Virus record (IMG/VR): IMGVR_UViG_3300009506_000013
Coordinates: 17,033-81,032 of that record
Source of the DNA: a virus
DNA length: 64,000 bases
Reading direction: 5' to 3' (one strand)
The position numbers were made by a program, and so were the translations under genes. The notes beneath the pieces were generated by a model. That model was given only the letters and a program-made list of their open reading frames with translations, did no database searches and had not been told where the DNA came from. Position 1 is the first letter of the stretch. Each line of letters starts with the position of its first letter. Below, piece after piece: positions 3,219 to 42,052 of this stretch.

Positions 3219-4952
3219 TTAGAACGGGCAAGCATCATCACTCACTGCCTTATCCGCATCGACATAATCTCTTCCCCAATCGCTCTGGTCGATGGGTCCG
3301 CTGTTCGCTCCTTTCCCCAATATAACATCGATGATACTACTTTTCCCGGCCGCAATTTGGGCCAAGACAACGTCCATACTATTTTGTAACACGAGATGCG
3401 TCACGAGCACCTTATGAGTTTGGCCGATCCGGTGGGAGCGGTCTGCCGCTTGGTTCATCCGCTCTGGCACGACATCCTCTTCCACAAACAGCACATGCCA
3501 TGCGGACGTAAGGTTCAGCCCTACACCCGCCGCCTGTATACTCCCGAAGAAAGGAAGCATTGAAGGATCGCCGTTGTATTGGTCGATGATCGGTTGCCGC
3601 TTCTTTGCTGGTGTCGGCCCGTATACGAGCGCAGATGGCTGGAACTCCCGGTGTAGCCTCTCCAAGACATGGTGGTGGTGCGCGAATACTAACATCTTAT
3701 GTGGATCGTCGGTGAGTGTCTCTTTAAGATATTGGATGGCGTATGGGATCTTGAGGTCAGCCAGCTCCCGCCTCTGCCGGCTATACTCTTCAAAAGAGAT
3801 GGTAACCTGAGAGTCTAGCTCCCCCACGAGCTTGCGGAACTCCGCCGCATTTCCGGCCTCTCTAGCTGTTTTTAAGGCCTTCCTGATAGAATCTGTTGCC
3901 TTCCGGAAATGATCCACCTCTCTGGCCAGCTCGCGGGCCAATTTTGGGCTTTCTACAGGCACTTCAAGGATCTGATACCGCTTATCGGGCAGGTCCAGGT
4001 CCACCTCATCCTTTGTCCTTCGGATCATCACCGACTTCCGGAGCAATTCCTGAAACTGCTCTTCGTTGGATGACCCGCTAAAATCCCAGCCATATCCGTT
4101 GTGTGTCGCTCCGCAAAACGTCTGCGCAAACCACCAAAAGCTTGGCCAGGACTTCGGATCCAGCCAATGGAGCACCCCGAACATCTCCACCGGACGGTTC
4201 TCAATCGGCGAACCACTCAGCGCCGATTTATACCGCGCCTTCAAAGGGGCAAAGGCCTCTTCATTTTTCGGGTTGTCCTTCTTTGGCTCATATCCTAGCA
4301 CCATCTTGGTCCGCATGGCTTTAGGGTTTTTGATAAATTGAGCCTCATCAGACACAATAAGATCCCACGAGACAGAGTCCAGCCGAAACTTATGCCTGTC
4401 GAGGATATCATAATTGATGATAATGATTTGAGCTGCTGGCCAATCGCTCCCCCAACAGATCCCGACACTCAAAGGCCGGACAAGCCAAGTCTTCAGCTCA
4501 TTCTCCCAGTTGACCTTGAGACTGGACTTAGTTATGATCAGAACTCTCTCAATAGTAGGATCGGCGTTGATAAGACCGATAGCCTGGATGGTCTTCCCCA
4601 AGCCCATGTCATCGGCGATGTAGCTATTCTTATGTTCTAGCTGCCACTGGATGCCGGCCTTCTGGTATCCGAAATACTCTTCACCCTCTGGAGCTGGTAA
4701 AGCCCAGTTGGAATCTGTAGCGGATGATTTGGCCAGGTTGGCCTCTCTCTTCTTAATAACATTCGCCAGCATCTCCCGGCACCGTGGCGTGGCGTATTGG
4801 GCTAGTATTGCGGCGTGTTCCGGATTGGTAGTTGCCCAATGGTTGGGCACTATCCGCTTCCAGACAAACTGAGCGCCCTTAGGCACTAGGCGCTCAGCAT
4901 ACGCACAATAACAGACAAACGCCTGGTATCGGTCTGAATAATCTAATTTCAT
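3219..4952 (-). CDS. SNF2-family (SMARCAL1/HARP-like) helicase
   Basis: Motifs ADDMGLGKT, DEAQ, SGSP, GVGLNLT and QAADRSHRIGQ. Confidence 0.9.
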   Translation of the reverse strand: MKLDYSDRYQAFVCYCAYAERLVPKGAQFVWKRIVPNHWATTNPEHAAILAQYATPRCREMLANVIKKREANLAKSSATDSNWALPAPEGEEYFGYQKAGIQWQLEHKNSYIADDMGLGKTIQAIGLINADPTIERVLIITKSSLKVNWENELKTWLVRPLSVGICWGSDWPAAQIIIINYDILDRHKFRLDSVSWDLIVSDEAQFIKNPKAMRTKMVLGYEPKKDNPKNEEAFAPLKARYKSALSGSPIENRPVEMFGVLHWLDPKSWPSFWWFAQTFCGATHNGYGWDFSGSSNEEQFQELLRKSVMIRRTKDEVDLDLPDKRYQILEVPVESPKLARELAREVDHFRKATDSIRKALKTAREAGNAAEFRKLVGELDSQVTISFEEYSRQRRELADLKIPYAIQYLKETLTDDPHKMLVFAHHHHVLERLHREFQPSALVYGPTPAKKRQPIIDQYNGDPSMLPFFGSIQAAGVGLNLTSAWHVLFVEEDVVPERMNQAADRSHRIGQTHKVLVTHLVLQNSMDVVLAQIAAGKSSIIDVILGKGANSGPIDQSDWGRDYVDADKAVSDDACPF

Positions 4953-5482
4953 ATGGACATTCTCCTTATTAGATTATCCATTCGGCGTAGAACTTCTGTT
5001 TGCAGTTTTGGCGGAATGAAATGCTTCTTTACTTCTTGGAACATCTGGCTGCTAAGCCACACACCCTTCGAGTCCTTTTCCTTCAACAACTGATACTCTT
5101 GGAACTCTGCGGCGGTGATGGTTATGCTGTTTGCTACGCGGGCACCCTTCGGTGTTGCCGCCTTCTCCGCATCATCCTTATTAAAACGGATCGCCGGAGG
5201 TGGCTGAACCTCTTCCTTATCAGTCTTCAGGTTCTTAATAAGGAAGTCCACAATACCTTTGACGGATGGATTGGTGTACTTGTGCCGTTGAAGCCGGCAA
5301 GTCCAGGTTACCACCATATCATCCCTGTCGAAAGTAAAGTTCATGTTAATTTGGAGCGGCTCCATTTTCGCACTCCAGATCCGGTCCCAGTACTGGCCGA
5401 CAAAATAACCCCGCCGCCCCAGCTCCTTGCGGATCTCTTTTTGCAACCTTGCCTTCTTTTCCCCTTGCGACATAGGTCCCAT
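4949..5482 (-). CDS. hypothetical protein
   Basis: 177-aa ORF with SD AAAGGAG; ATGA overlap with the helicase gene. Confidence 0.65.
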   Translation of the reverse strand: MGPMSQGEKKARLQKEIRKELGRRGYFVGQYWDRIWSAKMEPLQINMNFTFDRDDMVVTWTCRLQRHKYTNPSVKGIVDFLIKNLKTDKEEVQPPPAIRFNKDDAEKAATPKGARVANSITITAAEFQEYQLLKEKDSKGVWLSSQMFQEVKKHFIPPKLQTEVLRRMDNLIRRMSI

Positions 5483-5494
5483 GTTTATCTCCTT

Positions 5495-5670
5495 TCGCTG
5501 TCCTGTTTGCTAACATCTTATCCCCTAAACTTTGGTGGGGTGAAGGATCGCTGTGCCTTCTTGGAGTTCACGCAACTCCCTGCCGCCCCACCACCGGCAG
5601 AATGCGCTTTCCTAGTCACTCAGGAGAGCACTTTGGCCCTTCGAGCTTTAGGCTCGTCAGGCCCACAATT
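5495..5670 (-). ncRNA. putative structured RNA (multi-hairpin pseudoknot) immediately 3' of the last ribozyme
   Basis: Hairpins CGAGC/GCUCG, CUGCCG/CGGCAG, GGAGUU/AACUCC and GAAGG/CCUUC; loop UGGUGGGG is complementary to downstream CCCCACCA. Confidence 0.45.
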
Positions 5671-5671
5671 G

Positions 5672-5746
5672 TCTGGACTTGCGACCAGTAGCCCAATCCT
5701 CTGGGCTAGCGCATTAAGGCCGGATCGCTCCGGCCCCGCTCTGCTA
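5672..5746 (-). ncRNA. twister ribozyme copy 1 (permuted, open at P5)
   Basis: GCAGAGCGG-P1(GCGA loop)-UAAUGCGC-P3-CUGGUCGCAAGUCCAG; T1 variant UCGC/GCGG. Confidence 0.85.
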
Positions 5747-6058
5747 TGCTACATCCTCTTCCCACTCCTCTTCCTCTTCCTTACTGGGGTTGATCCCGGC
5801 ATTACAGCTCCGGCACAACAGCTCCAGCTCCCCGTTCTCATAGTCCCTCTCATAGCGGACCATCCGTGACCACCGGGACAAATCCCGGCAGGACCAATCC
5901 CGCCCGTTGGGGTGGTGAAATTCTAACTTCCTTTTTTTACCACACTCTTCACAGCACCCGCCCATCTTTATGATTAAGGCTTTCCGCCTCAGTTTGTAGG
6001 CTTTGACGTGATTCAGAGTTTTTCTTCGGCTCCTTTTCTTCCGGACTTCCTCTGTCAT
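5744..6058 (-). CDS. HNH-type zinc-binding endonuclease-like protein
   Basis: CEECG...LEFHH...LLCRSCN pattern. Confidence 0.65.
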   Translation of the reverse strand: MTEEVRKKRSRRKTLNHVKAYKLRRKALIIKMGGCCEECGKKRKLEFHHPNGRDWSCRDLSRWSRMVRYERDYENGELELLCRSCNAGINPSKEEEEEWEEDVA

Positions 6059-6114
6059 CTCGTTTCTCCCTTCCAGTATTTTACCCCAGTTTTTAACTGG
6101 ATCATAGCTAAAAA

Positions 6115-6190
6115 TCTGGACTTGTGACCAGTGGCCGGGACAACCCCAGCCAGCGCATTAAGGCCGGATCGCTCCGGCCCCACTCTGCTA
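6115..6190 (-). ncRNA. twister ribozyme copy 2
   Basis: Full consensus; core identical to copies 12 and 15. Confidence 0.85.
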
Positions 6191-6247
6191 ATTTTCTATG
6201 CCCATAACCTTTTCAATCTGACTCCCCGCTTTCCCCTATCAAACCTC

Positions 6248-6679
6248 CTATCCATATATCCGGTCAGCCAAGCACTCCCTCCACAACATTTCTGGGATGT
6301 CTTCCTTCCGGAAGTATGCTTTGACCCTTGGATCAGTTAATAACAACCCTTCCGCCACATCTGGACAAGCATCCTGTAATCGGGAATCATCATACCCGTC
6401 TGCCTTAAGATCCGCCCGGCACTGGCTACAGATCTTATTCAGCTGGCGCTCTGTATATGGCTTTACCTTTGGGGCTGAGGTATTCACCTTGAACGGCCTT
6501 TCCTTCTCCTTTATCCGGATGTAGTCTGGATATAGGATACCGGCATCGCTTTGTATCCTTATTTTATAGGCCACAAAACCACCCCGCCTTCCAAGCTCAA
6601 CCTTCTCCACTACGGTCCCGATTATACAGGTGTTCTTATCTATTCTGAACCGGTCCCTCTTTCCTATCTTTGCTACCAT
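6248..6679 (-). CDS. hypothetical early protein
   Basis: ATG preceded by SD AAAGGAG directly after ribozyme copy 3. Confidence 0.7.
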   Translation of the reverse strand: MVAKIGKRDRFRIDKNTCIIGTVVEKVELGRRGGFVAYKIRIQSDAGILYPDYIRIKEKERPFKVNTSAPKVKPYTERQLNKICSQCRADLKADGYDDSRLQDACPDVAEGLLLTDPRVKAYFRKEDIPEMLWRECLADRIYG

Positions 6680-6692
6680 TTTGTTTCTCCTT

Positions 6693-6766
6693 TCTGGACT
6701 TGCGACCAGTAGCCCAACCGTTGGGCTAGCGCATTAAGGCCAGGTTGCCCTGGCCCCGCTCTGCTA
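6693..6766 (-). ncRNA. twister ribozyme copy 3
   Basis: P1 variant GGCCAGG-GCAA-CCUGGCC (compensatory changes, still a GNRA loop); T1 UCGC/GCGG. Confidence 0.85.
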
Positions 6767-6958
6767 TAAGAGTTTTGATAAAGGTGAACGCCGAACACGG
6801 ACCGCACGAGCGCGGTGTATGAACTGACTACCTTCATACTTCACAATCACCCGTCCGCATCGCCCACAATTCGCTACACGAGAGGCAGGCATACTACCAA
6901 CATCCACCCGGTTTTTCTGCCCACAGTAGGGGCACTGCCGGATCTTAATACATTCCAT
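6764..6958 (-). CDS. small zinc-ribbon protein
   Basis: CPYCGQKNRV...ANCGRC; SD GGAGG before ATG 6958. Confidence 0.6.
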   Translation of the reverse strand: MECIKIRQCPYCGQKNRVDVGSMPASRVANCGRCGRVIVKYEGSQFIHRARAVRVRRSPLSKLL

Positions 6959-6959
6959 G

Positions 6960-7400
6960 TTAGTATCCTCCACCAGAAGCACATTTTGGACCAATCCCGG
7001 CCTTTACAGACTCCGGAGTTGTTAACAACCTACCACATACGCAGCACCGCCCGCAGTGATAGAAGTTGATCTTGGTTGGTATAGAACCTTTAATCAAGTG
7101 ACCGTACCACCACCGGAAGGCAACAGCCGCTTTCGAGTCTTCGCTCATCTTCTTTTTAGAGTGGCGATATTCGCCGCCCTTAATAAGACCCATGAATGAA
7201 TAATCGGAAGTGTTGTCCGGACCTCGAAGCAAGCTGACCCAAAACAGATCCTCTTCCTCAGTCTTTATTGCCTTTGATATCCGATAGGTGAAACGATTCC
7301 CGGTGTCAGGATTCTCAATGGTAAAATAAGCATTCCCGCCAAAGATGAATTTTTTCTGCTCCTCTATTTCGAAGAGCTGGGCAATCGGTAGAGGCTCCAC
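6960..7400 (-). CDS. DUF6011-like protein
   Basis: C-terminal CGRCCVCGRLLTTPESVKAGIGPKC motif; GTG start with SD GGAGG. Confidence 0.7.
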   Translation of the reverse strand: MEPLPIAQLFEIEEQKKFIFGGNAYFTIENPDTGNRFTYRISKAIKTEEEDLFWVSLLRGPDNTSDYSFMGLIKGGEYRHSKKKMSEDSKAAVAFRWWYGHLIKGSIPTKINFYHCGRCCVCGRLLTTPESVKAGIGPKCASGGGY

Positions 7401-7615
7401 TAGTCACCTCCCAGTTCATCATCTGCGAACAGACCATCATCTGCGAACAGACCATCATCATCGTCATGGTCTTCAACATCGCCCACGCCAAACTGATCGC
7501 GAATTGCATCCTGTAACGGGTTTTTACAGCGCCCGCAAATAGCAGTCTGAACCTTCGCCTCATCCACTCTATTCTTCACCTGACACGCATCGCACTTAAC
7601 AGTCATATTATCCAT
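7400..7615 (-). CDS. small zinc-ribbon protein with acidic tail
   Basis: CDACQVKNRV...AICGRCK; 18-bp tandem duplication encoding GLFADD x2; SD AAAGGAG. Confidence 0.6.
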   Translation of the reverse strand: MDNMTVKCDACQVKNRVDEAKVQTAICGRCKNPLQDAIRDQFGVGDVEDHDDDDGLFADDGLFADDELGGD

Positions 7616-7630
7616 TTTTATCTCCTTTAT

Positions 7631-7704
7631 ACCAGACTTGTGACTGGTCTTGGGACAATCCCAAGGCGCATTAAGGCCGGATCGCTCCGGCCCCACTCTG
7701 CTTA
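7631..7704 (-). ncRNA. twister ribozyme copy 4
   Basis: P4 arms swapped relative to the consensus (CCAG-UCACAAGU-CUGG vs CUGG-UCACAAGU-CCAG), a double compensatory change. Confidence 0.85.
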
Positions 7705-8040
7705 TAGGTTGTTTAGTTCTGCTTCGGTAGCGGTGATGGCTTCCCGGTCAGGATTATCAGCCATCAACTGCCTTTCGAGCTTGGCCTTAAGGTTCTTCAG
7801 ATCCGTGGAATAACCACCCGCCTGTAACGAACTCATGAACAGCCGGACATTGGACAGAAAGAACTCACCCGTGCGGCCCCGGTCATCGACTGCCTGAACC
7901 TTTACCACTCCCTCTTCAATCCAAGCCGCCACGATCCTTGCGGGCCACGCTACCTTGTAGTCATTAAAAGCATGTTCGATCCGCCACGCCGGACAGATGA
8001 ACTGTTCTAAAAGGTTGTTTGATAATGATCCTCGTGCCAT
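7702..8040 (-). CDS. hypothetical early protein
   Basis: SD AAGGAG; stop codon abuts ribozyme copy 4. Confidence 0.7.
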   Translation of the reverse strand: MARGSLSNNLLEQFICPAWRIEHAFNDYKVAWPARIVAAWIEEGVVKVQAVDDRGRTGEFFLSNVRLFMSSLQAGGYSTDLKNLKAKLERQLMADNPDREAITATEAELNNL

Positions 8041-8058
8041 TTTGTTTCTCCTTATTAG

Positions 8059-8111
8059 TCTGAACTTGTGACCAACGAATGGGGCCAGGGAAGCCTGACC
8101 CCGCTCTGCTA
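8059..8111 (-). ncRNA. degenerate twister ribozyme copy 5 (probably inactive)
   Basis: Keeps GCAGAGCGG, a P1 hairpin and GGUCACAAGU, but lacks UAAUGCGC and P3; T1 is mismatched. Confidence 0.65.
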
Positions 8112-8318
8112 GCTGTCTTCCCTGCGTTCTGCTTCCCGCAGGTCATCGGCCATATTAACAATGTTCTCGCACAGTTCAATCAGCTTATCCCGATATTCCT
8201 TTTCAGACTTACTGATATCATGATCCGGCCCCTCTTCAATAGCTTCTTCAATAGCCGATTCACAATCAAGTAAATCACGATAGGTGTTCTCAAATCGACA
8301 ATAGCTCATATTGCTCAT
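8109..8318 (-). CDS. hypothetical early protein (MSNMSYCRFENT...)
   Basis: True start is ATG 8318 with SD AGGAG; the track start at 8402 lies inside the ribozyme. Confidence 0.7.
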   Translation of the reverse strand: MSNMSYCRFENTYRDLLDCESAIEEAIEEGPDHDISKSEKEYRDKLIELCENIVNMADDLREAERREDS

Positions 8319-8333
8319 TTTCTTATCTCCTAT

Positions 8334-8409
8334 TCTGGACTTGTGACCAGTAGCCTCCACCATAGAGGCTAGCGCATTAAGGCCGGATCGCTCCGGCCCC
8401 ACTCTGCTA
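8334..8409 (-). ncRNA. twister ribozyme copy 6
   Basis: Full consensus; identical to copy 13. Confidence 0.85.
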
Positions 8410-8931
8410 GATGATAGGCTTCACTCTATTCGCCCACACCGTGATAAGATCCTTGGGTGCACGGCCAGTGATACGGGCCAGATGACCACCAAAGGCCAGG
8501 TCCAACATTTTCTTCGGGTTGAGTACAGTTACCTTCCCGGTGGTCTTATTAATCCGAACCACCTGGGACTTTGACCACATCCCATTACTCAGGACTTCAA
8601 CCATCTGCCCAACCCGCAACCTCTCTATATAGCCAAAGTTTTTAAGGTATTCAGCAGCCTTCTCTTTGTGCTCTTCGCGGTGAGCTTGGCGCTCCTCCTT
8701 GAATTCATTTCCTGCCGCATACAGCACTTTTCTCTGCTTCGGCGTCAACTTCGCGGGTTTCAACATATGCTCTGGAACAGTGTACATTCCTTCCTCTTCC
8801 GATTTTACTTCAAAACGATAGACAACAGGCTGATATCGCTTACTGACTTTCCGCATCCCCATAACTACTCCAACAACCGTCTTGTGTTTGCGGGAAGATG
8901 TAAACTGAACTGCGTCACCGATATTAAACAT
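8407..8931 (-). CDS. hypothetical early protein (SH3/KOW-like beta domains)
   Basis: FNIGDAVQF and LRVGQMVEV motifs; SD AAAGGAG. Confidence 0.65.
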   Translation of the reverse strand: MFNIGDAVQFTSSRKHKTVVGVVMGMRKVSKRYQPVVYRFEVKSEEEGMYTVPEHMLKPAKLTPKQRKVLYAAGNEFKEERQAHREEHKEKAAEYLKNFGYIERLRVGQMVEVLSNGMWSKSQVVRINKTTGKVTVLNPKKMLDLAFGGHLARITGRAPKDLITVWANRVKPII

Positions 8932-8944
8932 GGTATTTCTCCTT

Positions 8945-9020
8945 TCTGGACTTGCGACCAGTAGACTCCACCATGGAGTCTAGCGCATTAAGGCCGGATC
9001 GCTCCGGCCCCGCTCTGCTA
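8945..9020 (-). ncRNA. twister ribozyme copy 7
   Basis: Full consensus; T1 variant UCGC/GCGG. Confidence 0.85.
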
Positions 9021-9302
9021 GTCTTCTTTACACTCAGGATAATCAACCGCTTTAAATACAGGGAACGTCCGCTGAGTCACGGCATTCTGGACTTCCTTTA
9101 AAACACTAAACAGAGCCTCAAGCTCTTGCTCCTGTTCCTTACCACGAACACGGATTTCACAGTTAAAACAAGCCTCACCGTTGCTTCCTGATACTTGAAG
9201 CTCCCCGCGATAGCCATACACCAGACTTAACAGGCCCTTCACATGTTCCACAATTTGGGCATCTGTCGCTTCTGTTACCGTCTCAACCGAATAGTCTTTC
9301 AT
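9018..9302 (-). CDS. hypothetical early protein
   Basis: SD AAAGGAG; bounded by ribozymes. Confidence 0.7.
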   Translation of the reverse strand: MKDYSVETVTEATDAQIVEHVKGLLSLVYGYRGELQVSGSNGEACFNCEIRVRGKEQEQELEALFSVLKEVQNAVTQRTFPVFKAVDYPECKED

Positions 9303-9319
9303 TTCTTATCTCCTTTTAT

Positions 9320-9393
9320 TCTGGACTTGTGACCAGTGGCTCCCCCATGGAGCCAGCGCATTAAGGCCGGATCGCTCCGGCCCCACTCTGCTA
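9320..9393 (-). ncRNA. twister ribozyme copy 8
   Basis: Full consensus; identical to copy 14. Confidence 0.85.
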
Positions 9394-9600
9394 AGATGCC
9401 CGCTGAAGGATTATCTCTCTTGCCTCTATAGCGCGGACATTGGTTATCTCGTTTTGTAGCTCTAAAAGATACGTTTGCTCAACTCCTGAAGCCTCCGCAT
9501 AGTTCATCAGGCCTTGGATATAGGCTTCGTAAACACGGACCATCCGTTTCAGAGTCTTCTCTTCCTCTACCACTATTCTCTTCACGTTGTTATTAGCCAT
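9391..9600 (-). CDS. hypothetical early protein
   Basis: SD AGGAG; bounded by ribozymes. Confidence 0.7.
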   Translation of the reverse strand: MANNNVKRIVVEEEKTLKRMVRVYEAYIQGLMNYAEASGVEQTYLLELQNEITNVRAIEAREIILQRAS

Positions 9601-9611
9601 TTCTTTTCTCC

Positions 9612-9690
9612 TCTGGACTTGTGACCAGTACCAGGGACAATCCCCGGTAGCGCATTAAGCTGGAGTCTTAAGACTCCAGCCCACTCTGCT
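9612..9690 (-). ncRNA. twister ribozyme copy 9 (P1 replaced; overlaps the end of the SprT gene)
   Basis: P1 = GCUGGAGUCUUAAGACUCCAGC, a different sequence with perfect pairing; core intact. Confidence 0.85.
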
Positions 9691-10117
9691 GTAGCGTCCA
9701 GATAGCAACTAAATCAGCCATCCGGCTTGACTCTTCCATAGTCAACAGCCCATCCGCAAACATCCTTTCCCATTTGCGAAACGCAGGGCCGTGACCCTCG
9801 TCAGCGCCATCCTTATACTTGCCCAGCCGAACGGGTTGGGCACTGTTGCAAATAAACCCGTGGACCAGCTCGTGCCACAGGATGCTTCGGACCTCTTTCA
9901 AATACCGCCCATATTTGAGCGGCTTTTCAAAGAACTTATTCAGGGCGATTGTCCGGGCCGCAACGTCATACTGACCGAAGACCACGCCCGGCAACCCGGC
10001 CTGATTAACTGTTATTGGGAACTGCTGGAAGGATACTTTCACCACACAGCCGGAGCCATTCAAGTATCCTTCATCCATCTCCTTCACCAACTGGAAAAGC
10101 AAAGATTCTATTTGCAT
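9668..10117 (-). CDS. SprT-like zinc metalloprotease
   Basis: ILWHELVH (HExxH) and GHGPAFR motifs. Confidence 0.75.
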   Translation of the reverse strand: MQIESLLFQLVKEMDEGYLNGSGCVVKVSFQQFPITVNQAGLPGVVFGQYDVAARTIALNKFFEKPLKYGRYLKEVRSILWHELVHGFICNSAQPVRLGKYKDGADEGHGPAFRKWERMFADGLLTMEESSRMADLVAIWTLQQSGLES

Positions 10118-10770
10118 CGCGCATACCCTGCCTTCCCGCCGATTTTAACCTTGCGGATAATTCCAAGTCTCACAAGGTGCCCAGCGACCATCTTCAAACG
10201 GCCAGCTGGATTCGAGCTTTTAATGTTGGGAATGAGTTCAGCAATAGCGTCATCCAGTGTAATAGAAGGATATTTGACCAGTAATTCCGCGCAAAACCTT
10301 ATAGAGGTATTTGGCAACCAGGCCGGAAGACCATCCGGACCAATCGGAGGTATTGCGGAAGTCCCACCACCCGTCTTGGCCTTCTTTGCTTTCGCCGTTG
10401 ACGTTGTAGTAGTCTGTTTGTTTTCGAGCTTATCAATATAAGATTGGATCTGCGGCGGATTCAGCGCCACCGCAAACCGTTCCATATACTTCAAAGCCAT
10501 CCGCAAACTTGTTTCCTTCTCTTCCGGAAACTGTGTGCCCAAGGCGCGGGCACGGCATTTACCTGCGATGTTCCAGATTTTAACAGCATCATCGGGCAGG
10601 TACTTCACACCGGGATTCTGTCGCTGTAATCTCTGAAGACTCCCACAAATCGGGTCCATCACGGATATCGCCTGGATTAATAGGCTTGTCCGAAGACTTA
10701 AGTCATCGTGGGCACGGGAAAATGCCGCGTAAATCTTTTCAATCATTTTCCTTGGATTTGCTTTCGCCAT
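10108..10770 (-). CDS. hypothetical early protein (possible C-terminal winged helix)
   Basis: 220-aa ORF with SD AGGAG after ribozyme copy 10. Confidence 0.65.
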   Translation of the reverse strand: MAKANPRKMIEKIYAAFSRAHDDLSLRTSLLIQAISVMDPICGSLQRLQRQNPGVKYLPDDAVKIWNIAGKCRARALGTQFPEEKETSLRMALKYMERFAVALNPPQIQSYIDKLENKQTTTTSTAKAKKAKTGGGTSAIPPIGPDGLPAWLPNTSIRFCAELLVKYPSITLDDAIAELIPNIKSSNPAGRLKMVAGHLVRLGIIRKVKIGGKAGYARCK

Positions 10771-10781
10771 TTCTTTTCTCC

Positions 10782-10858
10782 TCTGGACTTGTGACCAGTG
10801 GCCGGGACAACCCCGACCAGCGCATTAAGGCCGGATCGCTCCGGCCCCACTCTGCTTA
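10782..10858 (-). ncRNA. twister ribozyme copy 10
   Basis: Full consensus. Confidence 0.85.
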
Positions 10859-11575
10859 TTCGCTCCCCGTCCCCAACAGCGGACGGTTCGCAACCGCAAG
10901 AAATTTCGCCTCAAACTCAGCCTCACTCGTGATCTCCTCATGAACTCCCCCGGTGATTGCGCTCAGGGTTTTGAGGTTATCACTACCATTTCGGCCATAC
11001 CAGCTGTCTTCGCGGCCAATAAAAATGGTGTCAATAATAACGCCAGCCGTTTTGGCTTGTTCGGCGGCATCGAGGGCAACATCATAGTCATGCATATCGC
11101 CATCCGATGTAAGGATAATTCTGGGCGTATAATCTTTGTTCTTCTTCAGAAGAGTCAACGCCGCACGGATACCCTTTCCAGCATAAGTCCCGTTTCCATT
11201 CGCATACAGCGCACGAACAGCATCCTTGATCTCATCCAGGTTCGATGAGCCTCTCAGAGGTATTCGAGTGTTTTTCCCGAACTCAACAACGCCAATCTTC
11301 ATGGACAGGGCCTTTTCGCCAATCCGTTCATTCGCATACTTCTCAACAACCTTCTTTTGAAGGTCAACCTTCCGTGAACCGCTGTAGCGGTCTTCGCCCA
11401 TCCCATCATTCATCGAATAGGAAGCATCCAACACGAAACAGAGATATTGGAAATTATCAAAGAAGTCATTCAGATCCATACTACCAGCACTCAGGATCAA
11501 ATCCTCTTCTTTTTTCGTCATGGAAGTTGCGGTTGTTACGATAGAAGTGTTTTTGGAAGTTTTGTTATCAGACAT
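10856..11575 (-). CDS. von Willebrand factor A (vWA) domain protein
   Basis: MIDAS motif VLDASYSM plus GT and LTSDG; true start is ATG 11575 with SD AAGGAG. Confidence 0.85.
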   Translation of the reverse strand: MSDNKTSKNTSIVTTATSMTKKEEDLILSAGSMDLNDFFDNFQYLCFVLDASYSMNDGMGEDRYSGSRKVDLQKKVVEKYANERIGEKALSMKIGVVEFGKNTRIPLRGSSNLDEIKDAVRALYANGNGTYAGKGIRAALTLLKKNKDYTPRIILTSDGDMHDYDVALDAAEQAKTAGVIIDTIFIGREDSWYGRNGSDNLKTLSAITGGVHEEITSEAEFEAKFLAVANRPLLGTGSE

Positions 11576-11594
11576 GGTATTTCTCCTTTTTAAA

Positions 11595-11672
11595 AACTGG
11601 ACTTGTGACCAGTTAGATTCCACCATGGAATCTAGCGCATTAAGGCCGGATCGCTCCGGCCCCACTCTGCTA
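11595..11672 (-). ncRNA. twister ribozyme copy 11
   Basis: Full consensus; P4 extended to AACUGG/CCAGUU. Confidence 0.85.
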
Positions 11673-11861
11673 ATTTTCTATCCAAGCAACGCTTTTCGCA
11701 TTCAATAGTTCCAGTCTCACCTCTTCCAGCATTTGGATATCGGCCTCGTGTTTCCTCTTGCTTCGAGCTGAGAAAGAAAGTTTGTCAATCCGGTCTTGGA
11801 TAGCGTCAACCACCGCCAACTGCTGGCGGATACTCAGAAAGTGTACCATTAAGTCTTTCAT
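11670..11861 (-). CDS. hypothetical early protein
   Basis: SD AGGAG; bounded by ribozymes. Confidence 0.65.
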   Translation of the reverse strand: MKDLMVHFLSIRQQLAVVDAIQDRIDKLSFSARSKRKHEADIQMLEEVRLELLNAKSVAWIEN

Positions 11862-11872
11862 TTTTTATCTCC

Positions 11873-11949
11873 TCTGGACTTGTGACCAGTGGCCGGGACA
11901 ACCCCAGCCAGCGCATTAAGGCCGGATCGCTCCGGCCCCACTCTGCTTA
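11873..11949 (-). ncRNA. twister ribozyme copy 12
   Basis: Full consensus. Confidence 0.85.
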
Positions 11950-12246
11950 AGGCTCATAAAATCTAACATCGAAATCATTACAAGCCCTCATGAAATCCAG
12001 TATCGTCATCGTGTCAGATAACCGGCGCAGGAAGGCATAACCGTTCATTCCTTCCACCGTAGAATACTGGTCAAGATCATTCTCGTAGATATGGACGCCA
12101 TTGGCGTCAACCACGATCCCATAAGCCTTCTCAACATCTTGCGAGATTAGAACCAACCCGACCAACGGATCAGAACCATCACCAAAACTCTCAGCACTCG
12201 AAAAGGCATCCCAATCTTGCTTATCAAACTTTCTAAGATTAATCAT
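11947..12246 (-). CDS. hypothetical early protein
   Basis: SD AGGAG; bounded by ribozymes. Confidence 0.7.
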   Translation of the reverse strand: MINLRKFDKQDWDAFSSAESFGDGSDPLVGLVLISQDVEKAYGIVVDANGVHIYENDLDQYSTVEGMNGYAFLRRLSDTMTILDFMRACNDFDVRFYEP

Positions 12247-12257
12247 TTTGTTTCTCC

Positions 12258-12333
12258 TCTGGACTTGTGACCAGTAGCCTCCACCATAGAGGCTAGCGCA
12301 TTAAGGCCGGATCGCTCCGGCCCCACTCTGCTA
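12258..12333 (-). ncRNA. twister ribozyme copy 13
   Basis: Full consensus. Confidence 0.85.
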
Positions 12334-12582
12334 GTCTTCCAACTCATCCAACCCATCGAGGCAAGCCTCAACTTCATACAACCGCTGAGCCTCTTTCGCG
12401 GATATCTTCACGGAGGAAACAACCAGCCAGTTGTTATCGTCCAAGACATCCCCAACCTGTGTAACCACGGGGCAATTCTTTCCATCGAACACTTTCTTCA
12501 TGGCGGCATTTAACTCATCCACCGGAATTTGATCTGCCCAATCCCAAAATATTAACTCAGTCTTTACTGTGTTCTTTTTCAT
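12331..12582 (-). CDS. hypothetical early protein
   Basis: True start is ATG 12582 (MKKNTVK) with SD AGGAG. Confidence 0.7.
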   Translation of the reverse strand: MKKNTVKTELIFWDWADQIPVDELNAAMKKVFDGKNCPVVTQVGDVLDDNNWLVVSSVKISAKEAQRLYEVEACLDGLDELED

Positions 12583-12594
12583 TTTCTTTTCTCC

Positions 12595-12668
12595 TCTGGA
12601 CTTGTGACCAGTGGCTCCCCCATGGAGCCAGCGCATTAAGGCCGGATCGCTCCGGCCCCACTCTGCTA
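12595..12668 (-). ncRNA. twister ribozyme copy 14
   Basis: Full consensus. Confidence 0.85.
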
Positions 12669-12899
12669 ACCGTTCCAAACCTCAACGCCAGTAACCGTCA
12701 CTTTCATATTAATTCCGGCATCGGCCACGAACTTTTTGACCAGTTCCTTCGCAACATCCTTGTTTCGAGCCTCCACAAGGATCTCATCCAGCGTATCCAC
12801 GCAACCGCCAAGAATATAGGTACAACGGTATTTTTTCGGCGTGACCTTATGGTGTGGTTGCCGACGCATCGAAGTCCCCCATCCATTGTTTCTTCCCAT
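12666..12899 (-). CDS. hypothetical early protein
   Basis: True start is ATG 12899 (MGRNNGW) with SD AGGAG. Confidence 0.65.
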   Translation of the reverse strand: MGRNNGWGTSMRRQPHHKVTPKKYRCTYILGGCVDTLDEILVEARNKDVAKELVKKFVADAGINMKVTVTGVEVWNG

Positions 12900-12914
12900 T
12901 TTCTTATCTCCTAT

Positions 12915-12990
12915 TCTGGACTTGTGACCAGTGGCCGGGACAACCCCAGCCAGCGCATTAAGGCCGGATCGCTCCGGCCCCACTCTGCTA
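12915..12990 (-). ncRNA. twister ribozyme copy 15
   Basis: Full consensus; predicted U^A cleavage between 12960 and 12959. Confidence 0.85.
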
Positions 12991-13191
12991 GTAACAATCT
13001 ATTCCTTTCACCACGCATCCGGTGTTCAGGCCCTTTACCTCTTCAACCAGCGCCTCCCAGTACTTTCTAGCTGGCGCCTCTCTTTTATATTTACGGTTCC
13101 AACTCTCAAACGCGGGCCTGCGATTAAGAGTACAAAAAATCTCAAAGCCATCTTTGGTTTCGAAAAACGAAATTCTAATTGTATCGCTCAT
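12988..13191 (-). CDS. hypothetical early protein (first gene of the operon)
   Basis: True start is ATG 13191 (MSDTIRI) with SD AGGAG. Confidence 0.65.
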   Translation of the reverse strand: MSDTIRISFFETKDGFEIFCTLNRRPAFESWNRKYKREAPARKYWEALVEEVKGLNTGCVVKGIDCY

Positions 13192-13202
13192 GGTGTTTCT
13201 CC

Positions 13203-13282
13203 TCTGGACTTGTGACCAGTAGCCCAACCGCTGGGCTAGCGCATTAAACGGATGGCAATGCACTTACCATCCGCCACTCTGC
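13203..13282 (-). ncRNA. twister ribozyme copy 16 (5'-most)
   Basis: P1 = GCGGAUGGUAA-GUGCA-UUGCCAUCCGU, a third unrelated P1 sequence; core intact. Confidence 0.85.
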
Positions 13283-13815
13283 AAATTTTGGAGAATTTTC
13301 CGATCTCTTTTAGCAAAATACCGTATCGGTCACCCGCGACAATCGAATCACACTCGATTACTGAGCCACCCCGCTCAATTGGGACTTGCGATATTTCACC
13401 GTCTGTTTCACCGGGTGTCTTATCCACCCTGCCCACAACCTACTTTGTTCAGCTCTGGGTCCGCCTCACCTCCTCCGGATTTTAGCGGTAGCACCTTGGG
13501 CTCCCCGTTTTTCGGATCTTTGCCATCAGGTCTGGCCTTTTGTTTTTTCTCCGGTGGCCTTCGATTTTCATCAACCGGATTTTCCGCTGGCTCCTTCGGT
13601 TCCGCCTTCGGTCGGCTTCTTTAATTCCGCTCCCCCTGACCTTGGGCTTTCCCTTCCGCCTTTCTTTTTCGCCCTTCCGGTTTCCCCCAGTCATGCCGAT
13701 GTCGGCCTCAGTTGGGTTCCACGTTTATAGGGTGTACCGCTTTTCGCTTCCCCGCCCCCCCTTTCTTCTTTCTACTCTATTTAACTTTATCATCTTACCT
13801 TATCCTTTCTTACTG
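13283..13815 (-). ncRNA. putative long non-coding leader RNA
   Basis: ~530 nt between the promoter and the first ribozyme with no convincing ORF/SD; purine-rich, with many short GC hairpins and GGA motifs. Confidence 0.4.
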
Positions 13816-13821
13816 TACTTA

Positions 13822-13882
13822 AATATAATGGAAAATGAAGGGATAGTCTACATTTTTTTTAACTTTTTTTGATTTTTTTTTT
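13822..13882 (-). promoter_or_regulatory. sigma70-type early promoter with A-tract UP element
   Basis: -35 TAGACT (13850-13845), 17-bp spacer, -10 TATATT (13827-13822), three A-tracts upstream (13853-13882). Confidence 0.7.
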
Positions 13883-13941
13883 AAGTGGAGGAAAATCAAT
13901 CATTTATGAGGACGATTTTTTTGTTTTTTCCGGCATTTAGG

Positions 13942-14196
13942 CTATTTTTTACCCCCATCAACTGCTAATTTCCTATGCTTTTTTGATGGTCTTCCCCGGT
14001 GTAAATTCCGGGCTTTTAGGGCCAGCACCTGCCGCATATCGTACAGCCGAATATGGCCATCATCGAACACAGGCACCAAATACCCCTTTAAAACATGGCT
14101 ATCGATGGCGCTTGCTGAACAGCCGTATATCTCTGCCGCAGTCTTCCGGCTCACCAGCCGATTAATATCAAACATCCTTCTCTTGAATCTCCTCAC
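13942..14196 (-). CDS. small helix-turn-helix DNA-binding protein (MerR/Xis-like)
   Basis: SRKTAAEIYGCSASAIDSHVLKG...RLYD pattern. Confidence 0.6.
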   Translation of the reverse strand: MRRFKRRMFDINRLVSRKTAAEIYGCSASAIDSHVLKGYLVPVFDDGHIRLYDMRQVLALKARNLHRGRPSKKHRKLAVDGGKK

Positions 14197-15065
14197 CTCA
14201 AAGCCTCCAAAATCTCCCGCTCATCCGTTTCAGCTGGATCCTTCCCCGATACCTGAACAATCCTGATCGGCCTTCGATGAAAGGATAACAGCTGTCTCAT
14301 TTTTAACGCATCCAATTCCGCTTCCCGGTCCAGCATCACCACGAACCGGTCAAAGCCGGATACCAACGCCAATTTCTCGTGGCTGAGAACCTTCCCGCCG
14401 ATAGCGACAGCCGCCCAATCAGCAAACATTCTATCATGCGCCAACGCACGATCAACCGCCAACTTATCGGCCCAACCTTCTACAAGCACCAAGGTGGAGG
14501 CGATGCCTGCCGCCTGGTCATAACCAAACAGCGCCTCAGCTGCCTTCGCTCCTACAGGGTGAAGAACCTTCCGCTCAGCTCTTCCTGTCCAATCCCGCGC
14601 AACGAAGCTCACCAACTCCCCGTCCAGCGTAATGGGTATTATCACCCTGTTTCTATATCTCCCAGTCGGACAAAATCCTATGGAATATTTTTGAATCTGG
14701 CCTACTGTGATCCTCCGGCCCAGCAGGTAGCGCATGGCTATCCCGGCAATAATACCGCGCCGGGGGAGTGCGAAATATTCCGAAGGCAAGCAAACATCCT
14801 TCTCTTTCTCCGGCTTCCACATTCCTCCCGGCAACTCGCCGGAAAGCATCCGCGCCTCACGGTAGCTGATACGATTTAGCTTTACAAACAGCCCTGCTAA
14901 CCGGCCCCGCTTCCCGCAACCGTGGCAGATGTAAACTTTCTTCCGTACATTAACGCAACAAGACGGTGTGCGCTCGTTGTGCCACGGGCAGAGTATGGTC
15001 CATTCTCCTCCTCCACTATGGCGTGCGTTTGGCTGTCCTGCGATAATCCGCTCTGCTTGATTCAT
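14193..15065 (-). CDS. DnaG-type DNA primase
   Basis: CHC2 zinc finger CPWHNERTPS...CHGC; TOPRIM motifs VEGWAD and MLD. Confidence 0.85.
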   Translation of the reverse strand: MNQAERIIAGQPNARHSGGGEWTILCPWHNERTPSCCVNVRKKVYICHGCGKRGRLAGLFVKLNRISYREARMLSGELPGGMWKPEKEKDVCLPSEYFALPRRGIIAGIAMRYLLGRRITVGQIQKYSIGFCPTGRYRNRVIIPITLDGELVSFVARDWTGRAERKVLHPVGAKAAEALFGYDQAAGIASTLVLVEGWADKLAVDRALAHDRMFADWAAVAIGGKVLSHEKLALVSGFDRFVVMLDREAELDALKMRQLLSFHRRPIRIVQVSGKDPAETDEREILEALR

Positions 15066-16423
15066 GGCTGTGCCTGATTCTGGGCGTAGGCCACCCCATC
15101 ACTTAATCGCATCTCATGGAGACAGAATTGCATCCGCGAAAAATCCTGCTTCAGTAAGATGTCTCCAACCTTCTGGCCAGCCGGTCCATGCCAATAACCA
15201 TCTACATATAACCGCATTTCGTTGTTGTCATACTCCTCTGGCGTTTGGTTTAATGTAAGAATCAAGGAGGAGTGCTGGGCTGGCATCGAGCTTTCCTGTC
15301 CATCCTCCATATAGATCCGGAATTGTTTCCGCCTTTTTAATGGTGTCTGCTGGGCGGTAATGAGCACAACATTCTCCCGTTGGGCCACGGCACGGGCGGT
15401 TGTGAATATCTCATCCCGCGAAGCTCTCATCCAAGCATCCCCGCCCCGCACTGAACTCTTCATCAGCTCCCCATAATCAACAATCACCACATCTATCCGC
15501 ACCCCATCGCGGGCCAGCTGCTGGATATCGTTTTGAAGATCCTGGGGAGAGTAGGTCCGCGCCATCCGCCATAGGATATACAGCTTGGATTTGAACAGCT
15601 CTTTTAGATAACCAATTTGGTTTCCTAATTTGTCCATGAACGGCGTCAGCTCATCCTTTTCCATATTCGAGAACATGGAGTCATAGCGATCCTCTACCAT
15701 CGCCCTCGAATTTTCCAGGCTGACATGGAGCACGTTGTGCCCTTGTAGAATTGCGCACTTGCCGGCGTGTTGTAAAAAGATGGACTTGCCCCGCTTGCTT
15801 GGCGCTATACAAAGACAGATCTCATCCCGGTGCGCAAATATTCCGTACTTCTCCAGCGTAGGAACCATGAAACGGACTCCATCCTTTGACTTCGATTCCA
15901 GAATGCGCCGGAGTATGCGCTTGTTCACTGTTGTAAAATATTCTACAGGCCTCTCCAAATCATCCTTCTGGATCGCCTGTGCCCTGCTTACTGCTTCCGC
16001 CGCCGCATCTATATTCCCGGCCTCGATAGCTTCCCCCAATTCAATCTGAAGCCTCTTCAACTTCGCGAACTGAAAGAACCTTTCGAGCTTTTGGGATATG
16101 TAGTATGCGTTGGTTGGTTCTTGAACAAGCTCAGCGCCTTTTCCTTTTAGAAGCTTGACGCGTGACTCATTCATCCGCTCATCTTCGGCGGCATCCTGTA
16201 TATAGGACAAGAACATGTCCTTGGCCACGAGGCCAGATTGGTCATAATAACGTCTTGCTAATTCTGCTAATGTAATGCGGAGTGTATCCCCGAATAGATC
16301 TGGGCTTAATAGTTGGCCATACTTCCTCATGAACTTAACATCAGTCAGCATCAAAGTCAGTACACCATCGACAAACCCTTCGTCAAACCCTCTAAACGTG
16401 TCGCGTGTGTACTGTGTGGCCAT
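15062..16423 (-). CDS. DnaB-like (SF4) replicative helicase
   Basis: Walker A APSKRGKS, HVSLE, Walker B VIVDY, TAQQ; adjacent to primase. Confidence 0.85.
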   Translation of the reverse strand: MATQYTRDTFRGFDEGFVDGVLTLMLTDVKFMRKYGQLLSPDLFGDTLRITLAELARRYYDQSGLVAKDMFLSYIQDAAEDERMNESRVKLLKGKGAELVQEPTNAYYISQKLERFFQFAKLKRLQIELGEAIEAGNIDAAAEAVSRAQAIQKDDLERPVEYFTTVNKRILRRILESKSKDGVRFMVPTLEKYGIFAHRDEICLCIAPSKRGKSIFLQHAGKCAILQGHNVLHVSLENSRAMVEDRYDSMFSNMEKDELTPFMDKLGNQIGYLKELFKSKLYILWRMARTYSPQDLQNDIQQLARDGVRIDVVIVDYGELMKSSVRGGDAWMRASRDEIFTTARAVAQRENVVLITAQQTPLKRRKQFRIYMEDGQESSMPAQHSSLILTLNQTPEEYDNNEMRLYVDGYWHGPAGQKVGDILLKQDFSRMQFCLHEMRLSDGVAYAQNQAQP

Positions 16424-41047: not shown

Positions 41048-42052
41048 CTATATAAAGTTGACGTGTTCTAATCGGGGAAGCTCGTTGTCCCACTCTATGG
41101 GAAGATGCCCTGCTATAATATCACTCAGCAGTTCATTCTGGACACTAAAGACGCAACGCGGACATTTCGCCGTATCTATCAAGCTTCCGCTTATCTCCTT
41201 GTCCCAATAGAACTCCTCCACTCTATCCCAACGGCAAAGCGCATAATCAGGATGAAATCTCCTATCGTCTGAAGGACTGTTTAAAACAAGCGAATCACAC
41301 GGGTAGATGTACCCATCAGTATACAAGACTGGGTGAACGCGGCCAAGATGACACTCTCGCGGCTGTACAAGAAACTTTCTTTGATGGAAGAAAGGTGGTC
41401 CCAACTCTGCGGCCTTCCTTCTTAAGAAGTGGTTGGCGGCATCGAACTGATCCGGAGGCAGGTTGCAATCAGGGATAAGCCGGACATAGCGGATGGGATG
41501 ACTCCGGATAGCCTTCTGGATTTTCTCCATAGCCGGAGGCATCCCGCCTCCACCGGGCCACACATAGCTCATCCCCACGGTGATATTCTCTGGAACTCTG
41601 GGAATGATATCGGCAGACGGGAGATAATCCCACGTGTTTGCCGAAACACGGATCCAACAGACAGTTGAGTCAGTAAAGTGCGCGTTGTTTAGTACTGCAC
41701 CATTTGTGATCAGGCCAACATCCAGCTTCATCTCCTTTAAGAACTTCAAAAGGCGTCCCAAACTTGCATACAGCGTTGGCTCGCCGCCACCACTAATAAT
41801 CACAGCCTTCAGCCCCAACGGGATCATCCTATAAACAACATCTTCTATAATCCCGAAATACAAATCAGGAAACAGCCTTCCTTCCCGGCCCCGATCTGCA
41901 ACAGAACAGAACTTACACCGGAGGTTACACCGTTCTGTCGGCATAACGTGGAGGGTGATGGGATGATTCCTGCGGTCTATAAGATCCTTAATCGCATCCA
42001 TGTGGTAGCGTAATTTTTGCCCCGTCGATGTATAGCTATTAAGTCTGTCCAT
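41048..42052 (-). CDS. radical SAM protein with SPASM/twitch-like C-terminus
   Basis: CNLRCKFC, SGGGEP, ITNG, C..DGYIYPC..CPRC; start 42052 overlaps the upstream TAA. Confidence 0.85.
   Translation of the reverse strand: MDRLNSYTSTGQKLRYHMDAIKDLIDRRNHPITLHVMPTERCNLRCKFCSVADRGREGRLFPDLYFGIIEDVVYRMIPLGLKAVIISGGGEPTLYASLGRLLKFLKEMKLDVGLITNGAVLNNAHFTDSTVCWIRVSANTWDYLPSADIIPRVPENITVGMSYVWPGGGGMPPAMEKIQKAIRSHPIRYVRLIPDCNLPPDQFDAANHFLRRKAAELGPPFFHQRKFLVQPRECHLGRVHPVLYTDGYIYPCDSLVLNSPSDDRRFHPDYALCRWDRVEEFYWDKEISGSLIDTAKCPRCVFSVQNELLSDIIAGHLPIEWDNELPRLEHVNFI

Follow-up and report, generated by a model that had tools for sequence, protein, structure and literature searches.

What might a phage do with a self-cleaving ribozyme at almost every gene boundary of an operon? 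This question is raised by an uncultivated tailed phage represented by IMG/VR record IMGVR_UViG_3300009506_000013 (81,032 bases, rated complete by CheckV), in which matches to tape measure, portal, and terminase proteins mark a tailed phage. In the stretch of 64 kb analyzed here (the window), 18 genes on the same strand (g1–g18, from 13191 down to 5744) are interspersed with copies of the type-P5 twister ribozyme. The array is located in the replication region, between genes for a DnaB-like helicase and a primase upstream and a gene for an SNF2 helicase downstream. From the sequence evidence presented below, the twisters most likely cut the long operon message into mainly single-gene pieces, an explanation which we regard as probable.

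A scan of the whole window with the covariance models of Rfam 15 (cmscan) returned 14 matches, every one to Twister-P5 (RF02684), with scores of 44.6–51.4 bits against a gathering score of 37.6. These matches span 5673 to 12989 and are confined to the minus strand. Twister-P5 was the best model of its clan at each site, and weaker matches within the clan were dropped as overlaps. A permissive search of positions 4000–16000 revealed a 15th copy at 13204–13283 (37.4 bits, E-value 6.3e-5), which is only 0.2 bit under the gathering score. Taken together, the 15 copies extend from 5673 to 13283, all in the same orientation as the genes, and RF02684 matched exactly these 15 sites over the full 81,032-bp record and no site in 14 control genomes. 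A pattern of three sequence blocks was also observed 15 times in the window, compared with 0.00 expected from 100 shuffles. The covariance-model search had been suggested in a preliminary description of the locus, whose coordinates for the copies proved accurate to one base. Distant-mode blastn of the stretch against 50,697 GenBank phage records gave no match.

The twister class is credited to Roth et al. 2014 in three reviews (PMC5408937, PMC6765202, PMC10085705). As defined in the available part of the first of these (PMC5408937), twisters have three stems that are essential (P1, P2, and P4), optional stems P3 and P5, and three permutation types (P1, P3, and P5). The same part describes two tertiary contacts: T1, which consists of three Watson–Crick pairs between loops L1 and L4, and T2, which uses the conserved GC of L2 and two bulged nucleotides of L4 and is called the most critical one. 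Cleavage is placed there at the U-A step adjoining P1.

Each element of the array opens with the 3′ strand of P2 and closes with P4, which corresponds to circular permutation at the P5 position. P1 folds fully in all 15 copies and forms a hairpin with a stability of about −15 kcal/mol; it occurs in four sequences, of which one is shared by 12 copies, two are unrelated, and one is a GNRA variant with compensatory changes. P3 shows 11 variants among the 15 copies, each a complete hairpin, and the arms of P4 are swapped in one copy (7632–7702). T1 pairs in 15/15 copies, its middle pair being U..A in 12 and C..G in three (5673, 6694, and 8946). Minimum free energy folds of five intact copies contained P2, P1, P3, and P4 in every case tried. 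GCAGAG, UAAUGC (with A at +1), the GC in L2, and GUCNCAAG are invariant throughout. The preliminary description had reported much of this, and its account was borne out for the P1 variants including the compensatory GNRA copy, for the arm swap in its copy 4, and for the covariation of T1 with C..G in its copies 1, 3, and 7; its "about ten" pairing variants of P3 became 11, all of which fold. Its predicted cut, 12960^12959, coincides with the U-A step beside P1, where the available part of PMC5408937 puts the scissile bond.

In comparison with the twisters of RF02684, the array shares the P5 permutation, P2, P1, and P4 together with the optional P3, both T1 and T2, the conserved nucleotides of L1 and L4, and the U-A step beside P1. 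It differs in that P3 is always there, that the first nucleotides of the element double as the upstream stop codon in 12 of the 15 copies, and that T2 and L2 deviate from the model. The only departure from an upper-case letter of the Rfam consensus is a U in T2, where GC pairs with GU in 15/15 copies (a C-G pair plus a G-U wobble as the outer pair), and in all 15 the L2 loop falls one nucleotide short of the model; both peculiarities had been raised as caveats beforehand, and both are visible in the cmscan alignment. With the covariance model, the conserved core, and both pseudoknots in agreement, and with every class feature that can be seen in sequence present, the earlier assignment of these elements to type-P5 twisters is as well supported as sequence analysis allows.

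A 16th copy had been claimed as well. At this site (8050–8109), the 5′ block is still present together with a hairpin resembling P1 and a loop resembling L4. However, P3 is missing, as is UAAUGCGC with the cleavage site and P2's 3′ strand, and the T1 partners are mismatched. The RF02684 search of the site was negative even at E-value ≤10. Since the cleavage site and the T1 pairing have been lost together, it looks like decay under relaxed selection; thus 15 of the 16 claimed copies stand as intact twisters, and the remaining one is a decayed copy. In addition, a stretch just past the last copy (about 5640–5672) resembles a hammerhead by eye (CUGANGA ... GAA). It was rejected as a candidate, as twister was the only ribozyme family with a match in 4000–16000 at E-value ≤10.

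The arrangement of copies relative to genes is highly regular. Among the 17 internal junctions of the 18 genes, 13 contain an intact twister and one contains the remnant, in agreement with the initial claim of a twister at nearly every gene boundary; one extra copy lies ahead of g1 and another past g18. The three junctions which have none are those of overlapping or abutting genes: g7/g8, where the stop of g7 overlaps the start of g8 by 10 nucleotides, g14/g15 (1-nucleotide overlap), and g15/g16 (1-nucleotide spacer). The upstream stop codon overlaps nucleotides 1–2 of the ribozyme in 12/15 copies, the Shine–Dalgarno sequence AGGAG comes straight after P4, and the next start codon follows 12–21 nucleotides past the ribozyme in 13/15 copies. 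Full cutting would be predicted to give 14 units of 276–1170 nucleotides, 11 with one gene, two with two genes, and one with three genes, consistent with the mostly monocistronic products that had been foreseen.

Based on this layout, a scheme of transcript processing can be proposed. Each ribozyme would fold as RNA polymerase passes, forming P2, P1, P3, P4, T1, and T2, and would cut itself at the U^A step directly past P1. The upstream message would then end about 29 nucleotides past its stop codon, where the P1 hairpin, rich in G+C, would be followed by a single U bearing a 2′,3′-cyclic phosphate. The downstream message would open with AAUGCGC, carrying a 5′-hydroxyl, and continue through the hairpins of P3 and P4 to the ribosome-binding site. 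In this way a single long transcript might be converted into the 14 units, all having identical standard ends whatever gene they carry. Because the same ends would be found on every unit, the expression and decay of each gene might be uncoupled from those of its neighbors, with possible effects on both stability and translation, and a gene swapped into the array would inherit a ready leader and tail.

We then asked how far such elements occur in other phages. By a pattern scan of IMG/VR, two further records were seen to have this twister subtype, and a broader pattern detected at least 118 stretches. When copies were counted with a loose regular expression in these viral stretches, all with a twister-P5 core, at least 99 had one copy in the fetched piece, at least 14 had two, and at least five had three or more; because the pieces are partial, copies are undercounted. 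Whole-record searches with RF02684 gave 11 copies of Twister-P5 in record G001 (67 kb, 84% complete; all above the cut-off), 15 in G004 (83 kb, complete; 12 above the cut-off), six in G003 (a 5.5-kb fragment), seven in G005 (a 10.6-kb fragment), two in G006 (43 kb, complete), four in G007 (40 kb, 54% complete; one above the cut-off), and one in G002 (39 kb, 66% complete). Thus the search for similar arrays recommended in the preliminary description was successful for G001, G004, G003, and G005. On the other hand, its suggestion that a whole operon built in this way was without known parallel was overstated: arrays of 6–15 twisters are present in other IMG/VR records, and ribozyme-flanked phage genes were proposed in 2011 in the available part of PMC3088659. 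A search of metagenome contigs for the 36-base core of the most frequent copy gave no exact match, and a looser subtype pattern matched 18 stretches, mostly short and including the source contig of G001, among which there was no closer relative with a long array.

The 55 RF02684 hits from six virus records, parsed by conserved blocks, were used for analysis of covariation. T1 pairs at all three positions in 55/55 copies (middle pair UA in 28, GC in 21, CG in five, and AU in one), a level of pairing that was reached by 0/10,000 shuffles, and all three pairs change on both sides. T2 also pairs in 55/55 copies under a post hoc register rule (one base is skipped if the second is not C), with GU as the outer pair in 30 copies, AU in 17, GC in seven, and CG in one. 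In a MAFFT alignment with fixed columns, the share of paired cells was 97.9% and 7 of the 12 pairs had two-sided changes, values reached by 0/500 shuffles; for the count of further pair types, 3/500 shuffles reached the observed value. Controls with slid partners were 18–40% paired. The cells of P2 and P4 were 96–100% paired over 49 distinct rows. A pairwise example is given by the first copy of the present array and that of G001, which are 0.775 identical and differ in the arms of P1, with pairing kept in both. This covariation supports a putatively working fold.

The same comparison sheds light on the wobble in T2. Its G-U form is found in four of the six records (the present phage, designated G000, and G001, G002, and G004), and a short L2 is common to G004 and G005. 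G-U is a common intermediate between the A-U and G-C forms in related arrays, which eases the earlier worry about T2 pairing but leaves in place the caveat regarding activity. These results also bear on the idea that the elements are twister descendants which no longer cut and which serve as structured spacers to stop exonucleases, to make polymerase pause, or to display the ribosome-binding site. In its favor, T2 and the length of L2 depart from the Rfam consensus in each copy, stable hairpins such as P1 would be supplied with or without cutting, and the decayed copy is still retained as a hairpin plus ribosome-binding site. However, all of the invariant blocks of the core are intact in 15/15 copies, T1 covaries, the G-U form of T2 stands beside A-U and G-C forms, and the one copy which lost the core also lost its pairing, as would occur under relaxed selection. 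We consider inactive spacers highly improbable.

Whether cleaved ends may come together again is a related question. In all 55 copies, T1 within the same copy is fully Watson–Crick, but hybrids made from the halves of neighboring copies are mismatched in 3/14 cases in the present phage, 4/6 in G005, and 1/5 in G003. Because T1 variants match within copies and not between neighbors, the contiguous ribozyme seems to be the unit under selection. This argues against a proposal in which the two ends of each unit come together as a twister with a nick, the gene forming a loop at the P5 position, so that the ends would be hidden from exonucleases, or joined into circular messages by a host ligase of the RtcB type or by the reverse reaction. 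The geometry required is real, as the predicted units run from AAUGCGC-P3-P4 to GCAGAGUGG-P1-U, and a hybrid T1 would be possible in 11/14 units here (nine Watson–Crick and two with a wobble), 10/10 in G001, and 14/14 in G004. The ends would carry a 5′-hydroxyl and a 2′,3′-cyclic phosphate, as ribozyme cleavage yields according to the available part of PMC8782182. Spliced or circular products were raised by Perreault et al. for tandem hammerheads, but they were sought and none was detected (PMC3088659, available part).

RtcB joins 5′-hydroxyl and 2′,3′-cyclic phosphate ends, and the engineered Tornado design is a circular-RNA scheme that resembles end-joined twister units. The literature searched yielded only engineered circular-RNA systems. 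RtcB (PF01139) was not found in the present phage, G001, or G004 by a search that was positive in 10/14 known control genomes; a host enzyme would remain a candidate. On this sequence record, circular messages gain no specific support and appear very unlikely.

Several observations weigh against the cutting of a long message by the twisters and should be considered together. First, a scan for sigma-70 promoters and terminators gave nine promoter-like and seven terminator-like sites, which is no more than in shuffles and carries no information on a single promoter or on how many transcripts there are. Second, all 15 copies combine an L2 that is one nucleotide short with G-U at a T2 pair that is G-C in the Rfam consensus, and the rate or the Mg2+ need could thus differ from those of the twisters that have been studied. 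Third, the register rule for T2 was set after the sequences had been seen; when the columns are fixed, 8/49 distinct rows, all from other records, lack the inner T2 pair because L2 is longer in some other arrays. Fourth, the 12 identical P1 hairpins and several fully identical copies show recent copying or gene conversion, so that part of the conservation within the genome reflects shared descent, and the C..G form of T1 in three copies may represent one event. Finally, the direction of any stability effect is uncertain. A 5′-hydroxyl end is said, in work attributed to Collins et al. in 2007, to mark the glmS product for RNase J1 in Bacillus.

The phages with related arrays offer a view on how such an operon evolves. 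G001 and G004 are relatives of the present phage, with 39–53% amino acid identity in common genes. By tblastn, the SNF2 helicase is 52% identical in G001 and 39% in G004, and the primase is 52% identical in G001 and was not found in the fetched piece of G004. The arrays of both relatives occupy the same genomic place, before the SNF2 gene, and the primase is upstream in G001 as it is here. Gene order within the arrays differs among the three phages; the homolog of g15, for example, is the first gene in G001 and the last in G004. For 11 of the 18 genes (g1–g5, g9, g10, g12, g13, g17, and g18), no homolog was found in the fetched arrays of G001 and G004. No P1 sequence is common to any two genomes, and the mean identity of copies is 0.85 within the present phage compared with 0.76 to G001. 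In G004, 14 distinct P1 hairpins are found in 15 copies, with a mean identity of 0.68. Thus, the architecture is old and conserved, and single copies have been turned over or homogenized genome by genome.

This evolutionary pattern raises another explanation, in which the main reason for keeping the ribozyme cores is that DNA can cross over there in register, exchanging cassettes of accessory genes, and RNA cutting is secondary or merely tolerated. It would fit the shuffled gene order between a primase gene and an SNF2 gene that stay put, the many genes without homologs in the fetched arrays, the homologs of g7 and g8, which are separated by a twister in G001 and overlap here, and the homogenization of copies within genomes; the ribosome-binding spacers are likewise repeated. 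However, plain repeats would need neither a catalytic core nor two pseudoknots nor compensatory changes, all of which are kept in 55/55 copies, and the diverged copies of G004 offer little homology for recombination, although that array is equally regular. Moreover, since every spacer has a ribozyme, breakpoints coincide with ribozymes by construction, and synteny is uninformative between such joints and transcript processing. We judge it unlikely that crossover is the main role. The two roles are compatible, and the shuffled gene order suggests that the ribozymes also act as cassette joints.

A two-level system can be envisaged on the same basis, in which the cores would be DNA crossover points for swapping, reordering, or duplicating small genes among related phages, each gene bringing its leader and tail, and would also yield units that, with complementary twister halves at their ends, might close on themselves or be circularized by a host ligase and so be exonuclease-proof; this combination seems quite unlikely. 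Separately, g14 and g16 both encode small CxxC...CxxC zinc-ribbon proteins with weak Zn_ribbon_Thio2 matches, and both match a single stretch of G004 (6057–6239), and they thus look like paralogous cassettes in one array.

Precedents for the cutting of phage messages by tandem ribozymes have been described. In prophages, genes have been reported to be flanked, singly or in short blocks, by multiple hammerheads (Perreault et al. 2011; PMC3088659, available part), and that part of the paper proposed that long phage transcripts are processed to mRNAs of single-gene or operon length. Native polycistronic RNAs of about 2 kb were cut in vitro for three tandem arrangements, one of them also in Escherichia coli (PMC3088659, same part), which we count as a precedent for transcript processing by the twisters. 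The present array is similar in that small phage genes, differing in identity, lie between multiple self-cleaving ribozymes of the same strand and a role in processing is proposed: 15/15 copies are on the gene strand, 13/17 internal junctions have one, and the predicted units hold 1–3 genes. It differs in that it belongs to the twister class, that it comprises 15 copies in contrast to the tandem or triple arrangements described in the available part of that paper, and that it is kept in place across phages with 39–53% amino acid identity. Twisters and hammerheads have further been reported to be enriched near phage genes and near other ribozymes, with polycistronic processing suggested and the reason unknown (PMC6765202, 2019; PMC10085705, 2023). 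Here, the ribozyme class and the phage setting are the same, and what differs is the near-complete tiling of one operon in a fixed stop-ribozyme-ribosome-binding site register. In the literature searched, we found no operon tiled by ten or more twisters, nor one with more than a few ribozymes, and larger arrays may stand in supplements or subscription journals. The array is therefore a large and very regular case of an arrangement already proposed for phages, and we claim no new principle.

Two other systems are useful for comparison. In insulators of the RiboJ type, an engineered self-cleaving ribozyme upstream of the ribosome-binding site trims variable upstream RNA and leaves a uniform structured leader. 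The present array is natural, is repeated 15 times, and would also supply the 3′ hairpin of the preceding message; insulation is suggested here by analogy. The glmS ribozyme needs a metabolite cofactor and destabilizes its own message. It is similar in that self-cleavage in the leader, predicted for the present array, would create a 5′-hydroxyl end on which the fate of the downstream message depends, and it differs in that the present twisters have no known ligand.

The coordinates of the 15 twisters (Tw1–Tw15), the decayed copy, and the 18 genes are listed in table 1.

Table 1. Twister copies and genes of the array, listed along the minus strand. Junctions are given for ribozymes and protein lengths (aa, amino acids) for genes; percentages are amino acid identities of homologs by tblastn.
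Feature	Coordinates	Strand	Junction or length	Predicted cut	Bits	Remarks
Tw1	13204..13283	-	ahead of g1	U13246^A13245	37.4	own P1; P2, P1, P3, and P4 in minimum free energy fold
g1	12988..13191	-	67 aa			AGGAG ribosome-binding site; no PHROG or Pfam match
Tw2	12916..12989	-	g1/g2	12960^12959	48.3	g1 stop TAG overlaps ribozyme nucleotides 1-2; start codon 16 nucleotides past 3′ end
g2	12666..12899	-	77 aa			no family match
Tw3	12596..12667	-	g2/g3	12638^12637	49.4	
g3	12331..12582	-	83 aa			no family match
Tw4	12259..12332	-	g3/g4	12303^12302	48.8	
g4	11947..12246	-	99 aa			no family match
Tw5	11874..11947	-	g4/g5	11918^11917	48.3	P1 and P3 as in Tw2 and Tw14
g5	11670..11861	-	63 aa			no family match
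Tw6	11597..11671	-	g5/g6	11642^11641	48.6	followed by five U
g6	10856..11575	-	239 aa			von Willebrand factor A domain (Pfam VWA, E-value 1e-12); 53% G001, 41% G004
Tw7	10783..10856	-	g6/g7	10827^10826	48.3	
g7	10108..10770	-	220 aa			no family assigned; homologs 36% and 39%
g8	9668..10117	-	149 aa			weak SprT-like metalloprotease match (Pfam, E-value 0.0049, under curated cut-off); homologs 40% and 35%
Tw8	9613..9690	-	g8/g9	9657^9656	44.6	unrelated P1, loop holds g8 stop
g9	9391..9600	-	69 aa			weak match to phrog_28392
Tw9	9321..9392	-	g9/g10	9363^9362	49.4	P1 and P3 as in Tw3
g10	9018..9302	-	94 aa			no family match
Tw10	8946..9019	-	g10/g11	8990^8989	46.8	T1 C..G form (GCG/CGC)
g11	8407..8931	-	174 aa			no family assigned; G001 homolog 32%
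Tw11	8335..8408	-	g11/g12	8379^8378	48.8	P1 and P3 as in Tw4
g12	8109..8318	-	69 aa			phage family of unknown function, phrog_8760 (E-value 3.7e-12)
Decayed twister	8050..8109	-	g12/g13			no Rfam match at E-value ≤10
g13	7702..8040	-	112 aa			no family assigned
Tw12	7632..7702	-	g13/g14	7673^7672	51.4	swapped P4 arms (CCAG/CUGG); top match
g14	7400..7615	-	71 aa			zinc-ribbon, weak Zn_ribbon_Thio2 match; homologs in relatives
g15	6960..7400	-	146 aa			GTG start; DUF6011 (Pfam, E-value 1.1e-11), phrog_20259 (E-value 1.3e-36); homologs 50% G001, 43% G004
g16	6764..6958	-	64 aa			zinc-ribbon, weak matches
Tw13	6694..6765	-	g16/g17	6736^6735	47.5	P1 compensatory GNRA variant; T1 C..G
g17	6248..6679	-	143 aa			no family assigned
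Tw14	6116..6189	-	g17/g18	6160^6159	48.3	
g18	5744..6058	-	104 aa			HNH endonuclease-like: phrog_2255 (E-value 2.1e-5), Pfam HNH (E-value 6e-4, just under cut-off)
Tw15	5673..5745	-	last, after g18	5716^5715	47.2	T1 C..G; followed by 190-nucleotide leader to next gene

Individual copies show some additional features. At Tw8, the g8 frame enters the ribozyme by 23 nucleotides (9668–9690) and ends with a UAA stop in the loop of P1, which makes it the sole copy with a coding-shaped P1. Tw14 is the only internal copy that is apart from both neighbors: it lies 58 nucleotides past the g17 stop (6190–6247) and 57 nucleotides ahead of the g18 start (6059–6115), and the TAG directly ahead of it is not part of any gene, which would fit the loss of a cassette at this position. 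Both Tw6 and Tw14 run straight into U-runs (CCAG-UUUUU at 11592–11596 and CCAG-AUUUUU at 6110–6114), as do two copies of G001 (after 3182 and 5709). P4, which has 4 bp, is too weak before these U-runs for a terminator call in the scan; the U-runs could be partial stops or AU-rich enhancers of translation.

The leader past Tw15 contains AGCGCAUUC (5600–5608, minus strand), which is complementary to the predicted 5′-hydroxyl end (AAUGCGCU) of all cut products. The 8-mer within this block has its single occurrence on that strand of the window, and the 9-mer is the longest block in common with the homologous leader of G001 (about 8040–8060). Once cleavage has taken place, the block could pair with the new 5′ end; alternatively, before cleavage, it could rival P2. 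In the G003 fragment, a hairpin that is repeated behind three of the six twisters (2751–2780, 3325–3353, and 4985–5010) carries GCAUU in its loop, which is complementary to the AAUGC cut end, and two further twisters are followed by GCAU(U) beside the ribosome-binding site.

Elsewhere in the window, a protein with a radical-SAM domain is encoded among the head genes (41048–42091), and an 892-residue protein contains a stretch similar to zinc carboxypeptidases (53340–56018). The main sequencing runs found to contain the stretch are from marine sediment, and no RNA run was found among them. In three DNA runs, contigs break at the repeated ribozymes, as in short-read assemblies, and no informative variants, joints, or ends were seen. 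A soil-metagenome run of another study contains four short contigs (151–265 bases) identical to pieces of 5613–10075, which may reflect a shared phage or carry-over between samples.

With 15 near-consensus twisters in a fixed stop-ribozyme-ribosome-binding site-start register, the operon is a near-ideal test object, and it has built-in comparisons in the form of one natural knock-out copy, three ribozyme-free junctions, and two diverged sister arrays. It also provides a handle on the open question of why self-cleaving ribozymes gather near phage genes (PMC10085705). If the two-level cassette system were true, expression in these phages would work as a natural plug-and-play system with the ribozyme as its joint, and this would explain why self-cleaving ribozymes cluster beside variable phage genes. 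If the twisters do process the operon message, which we consider the probable case, phages would obtain many messages with standard ends from one transcript by cutting RNA without protein, and the array would be a natural counterpart of the ribozyme insulators of synthetic biology.

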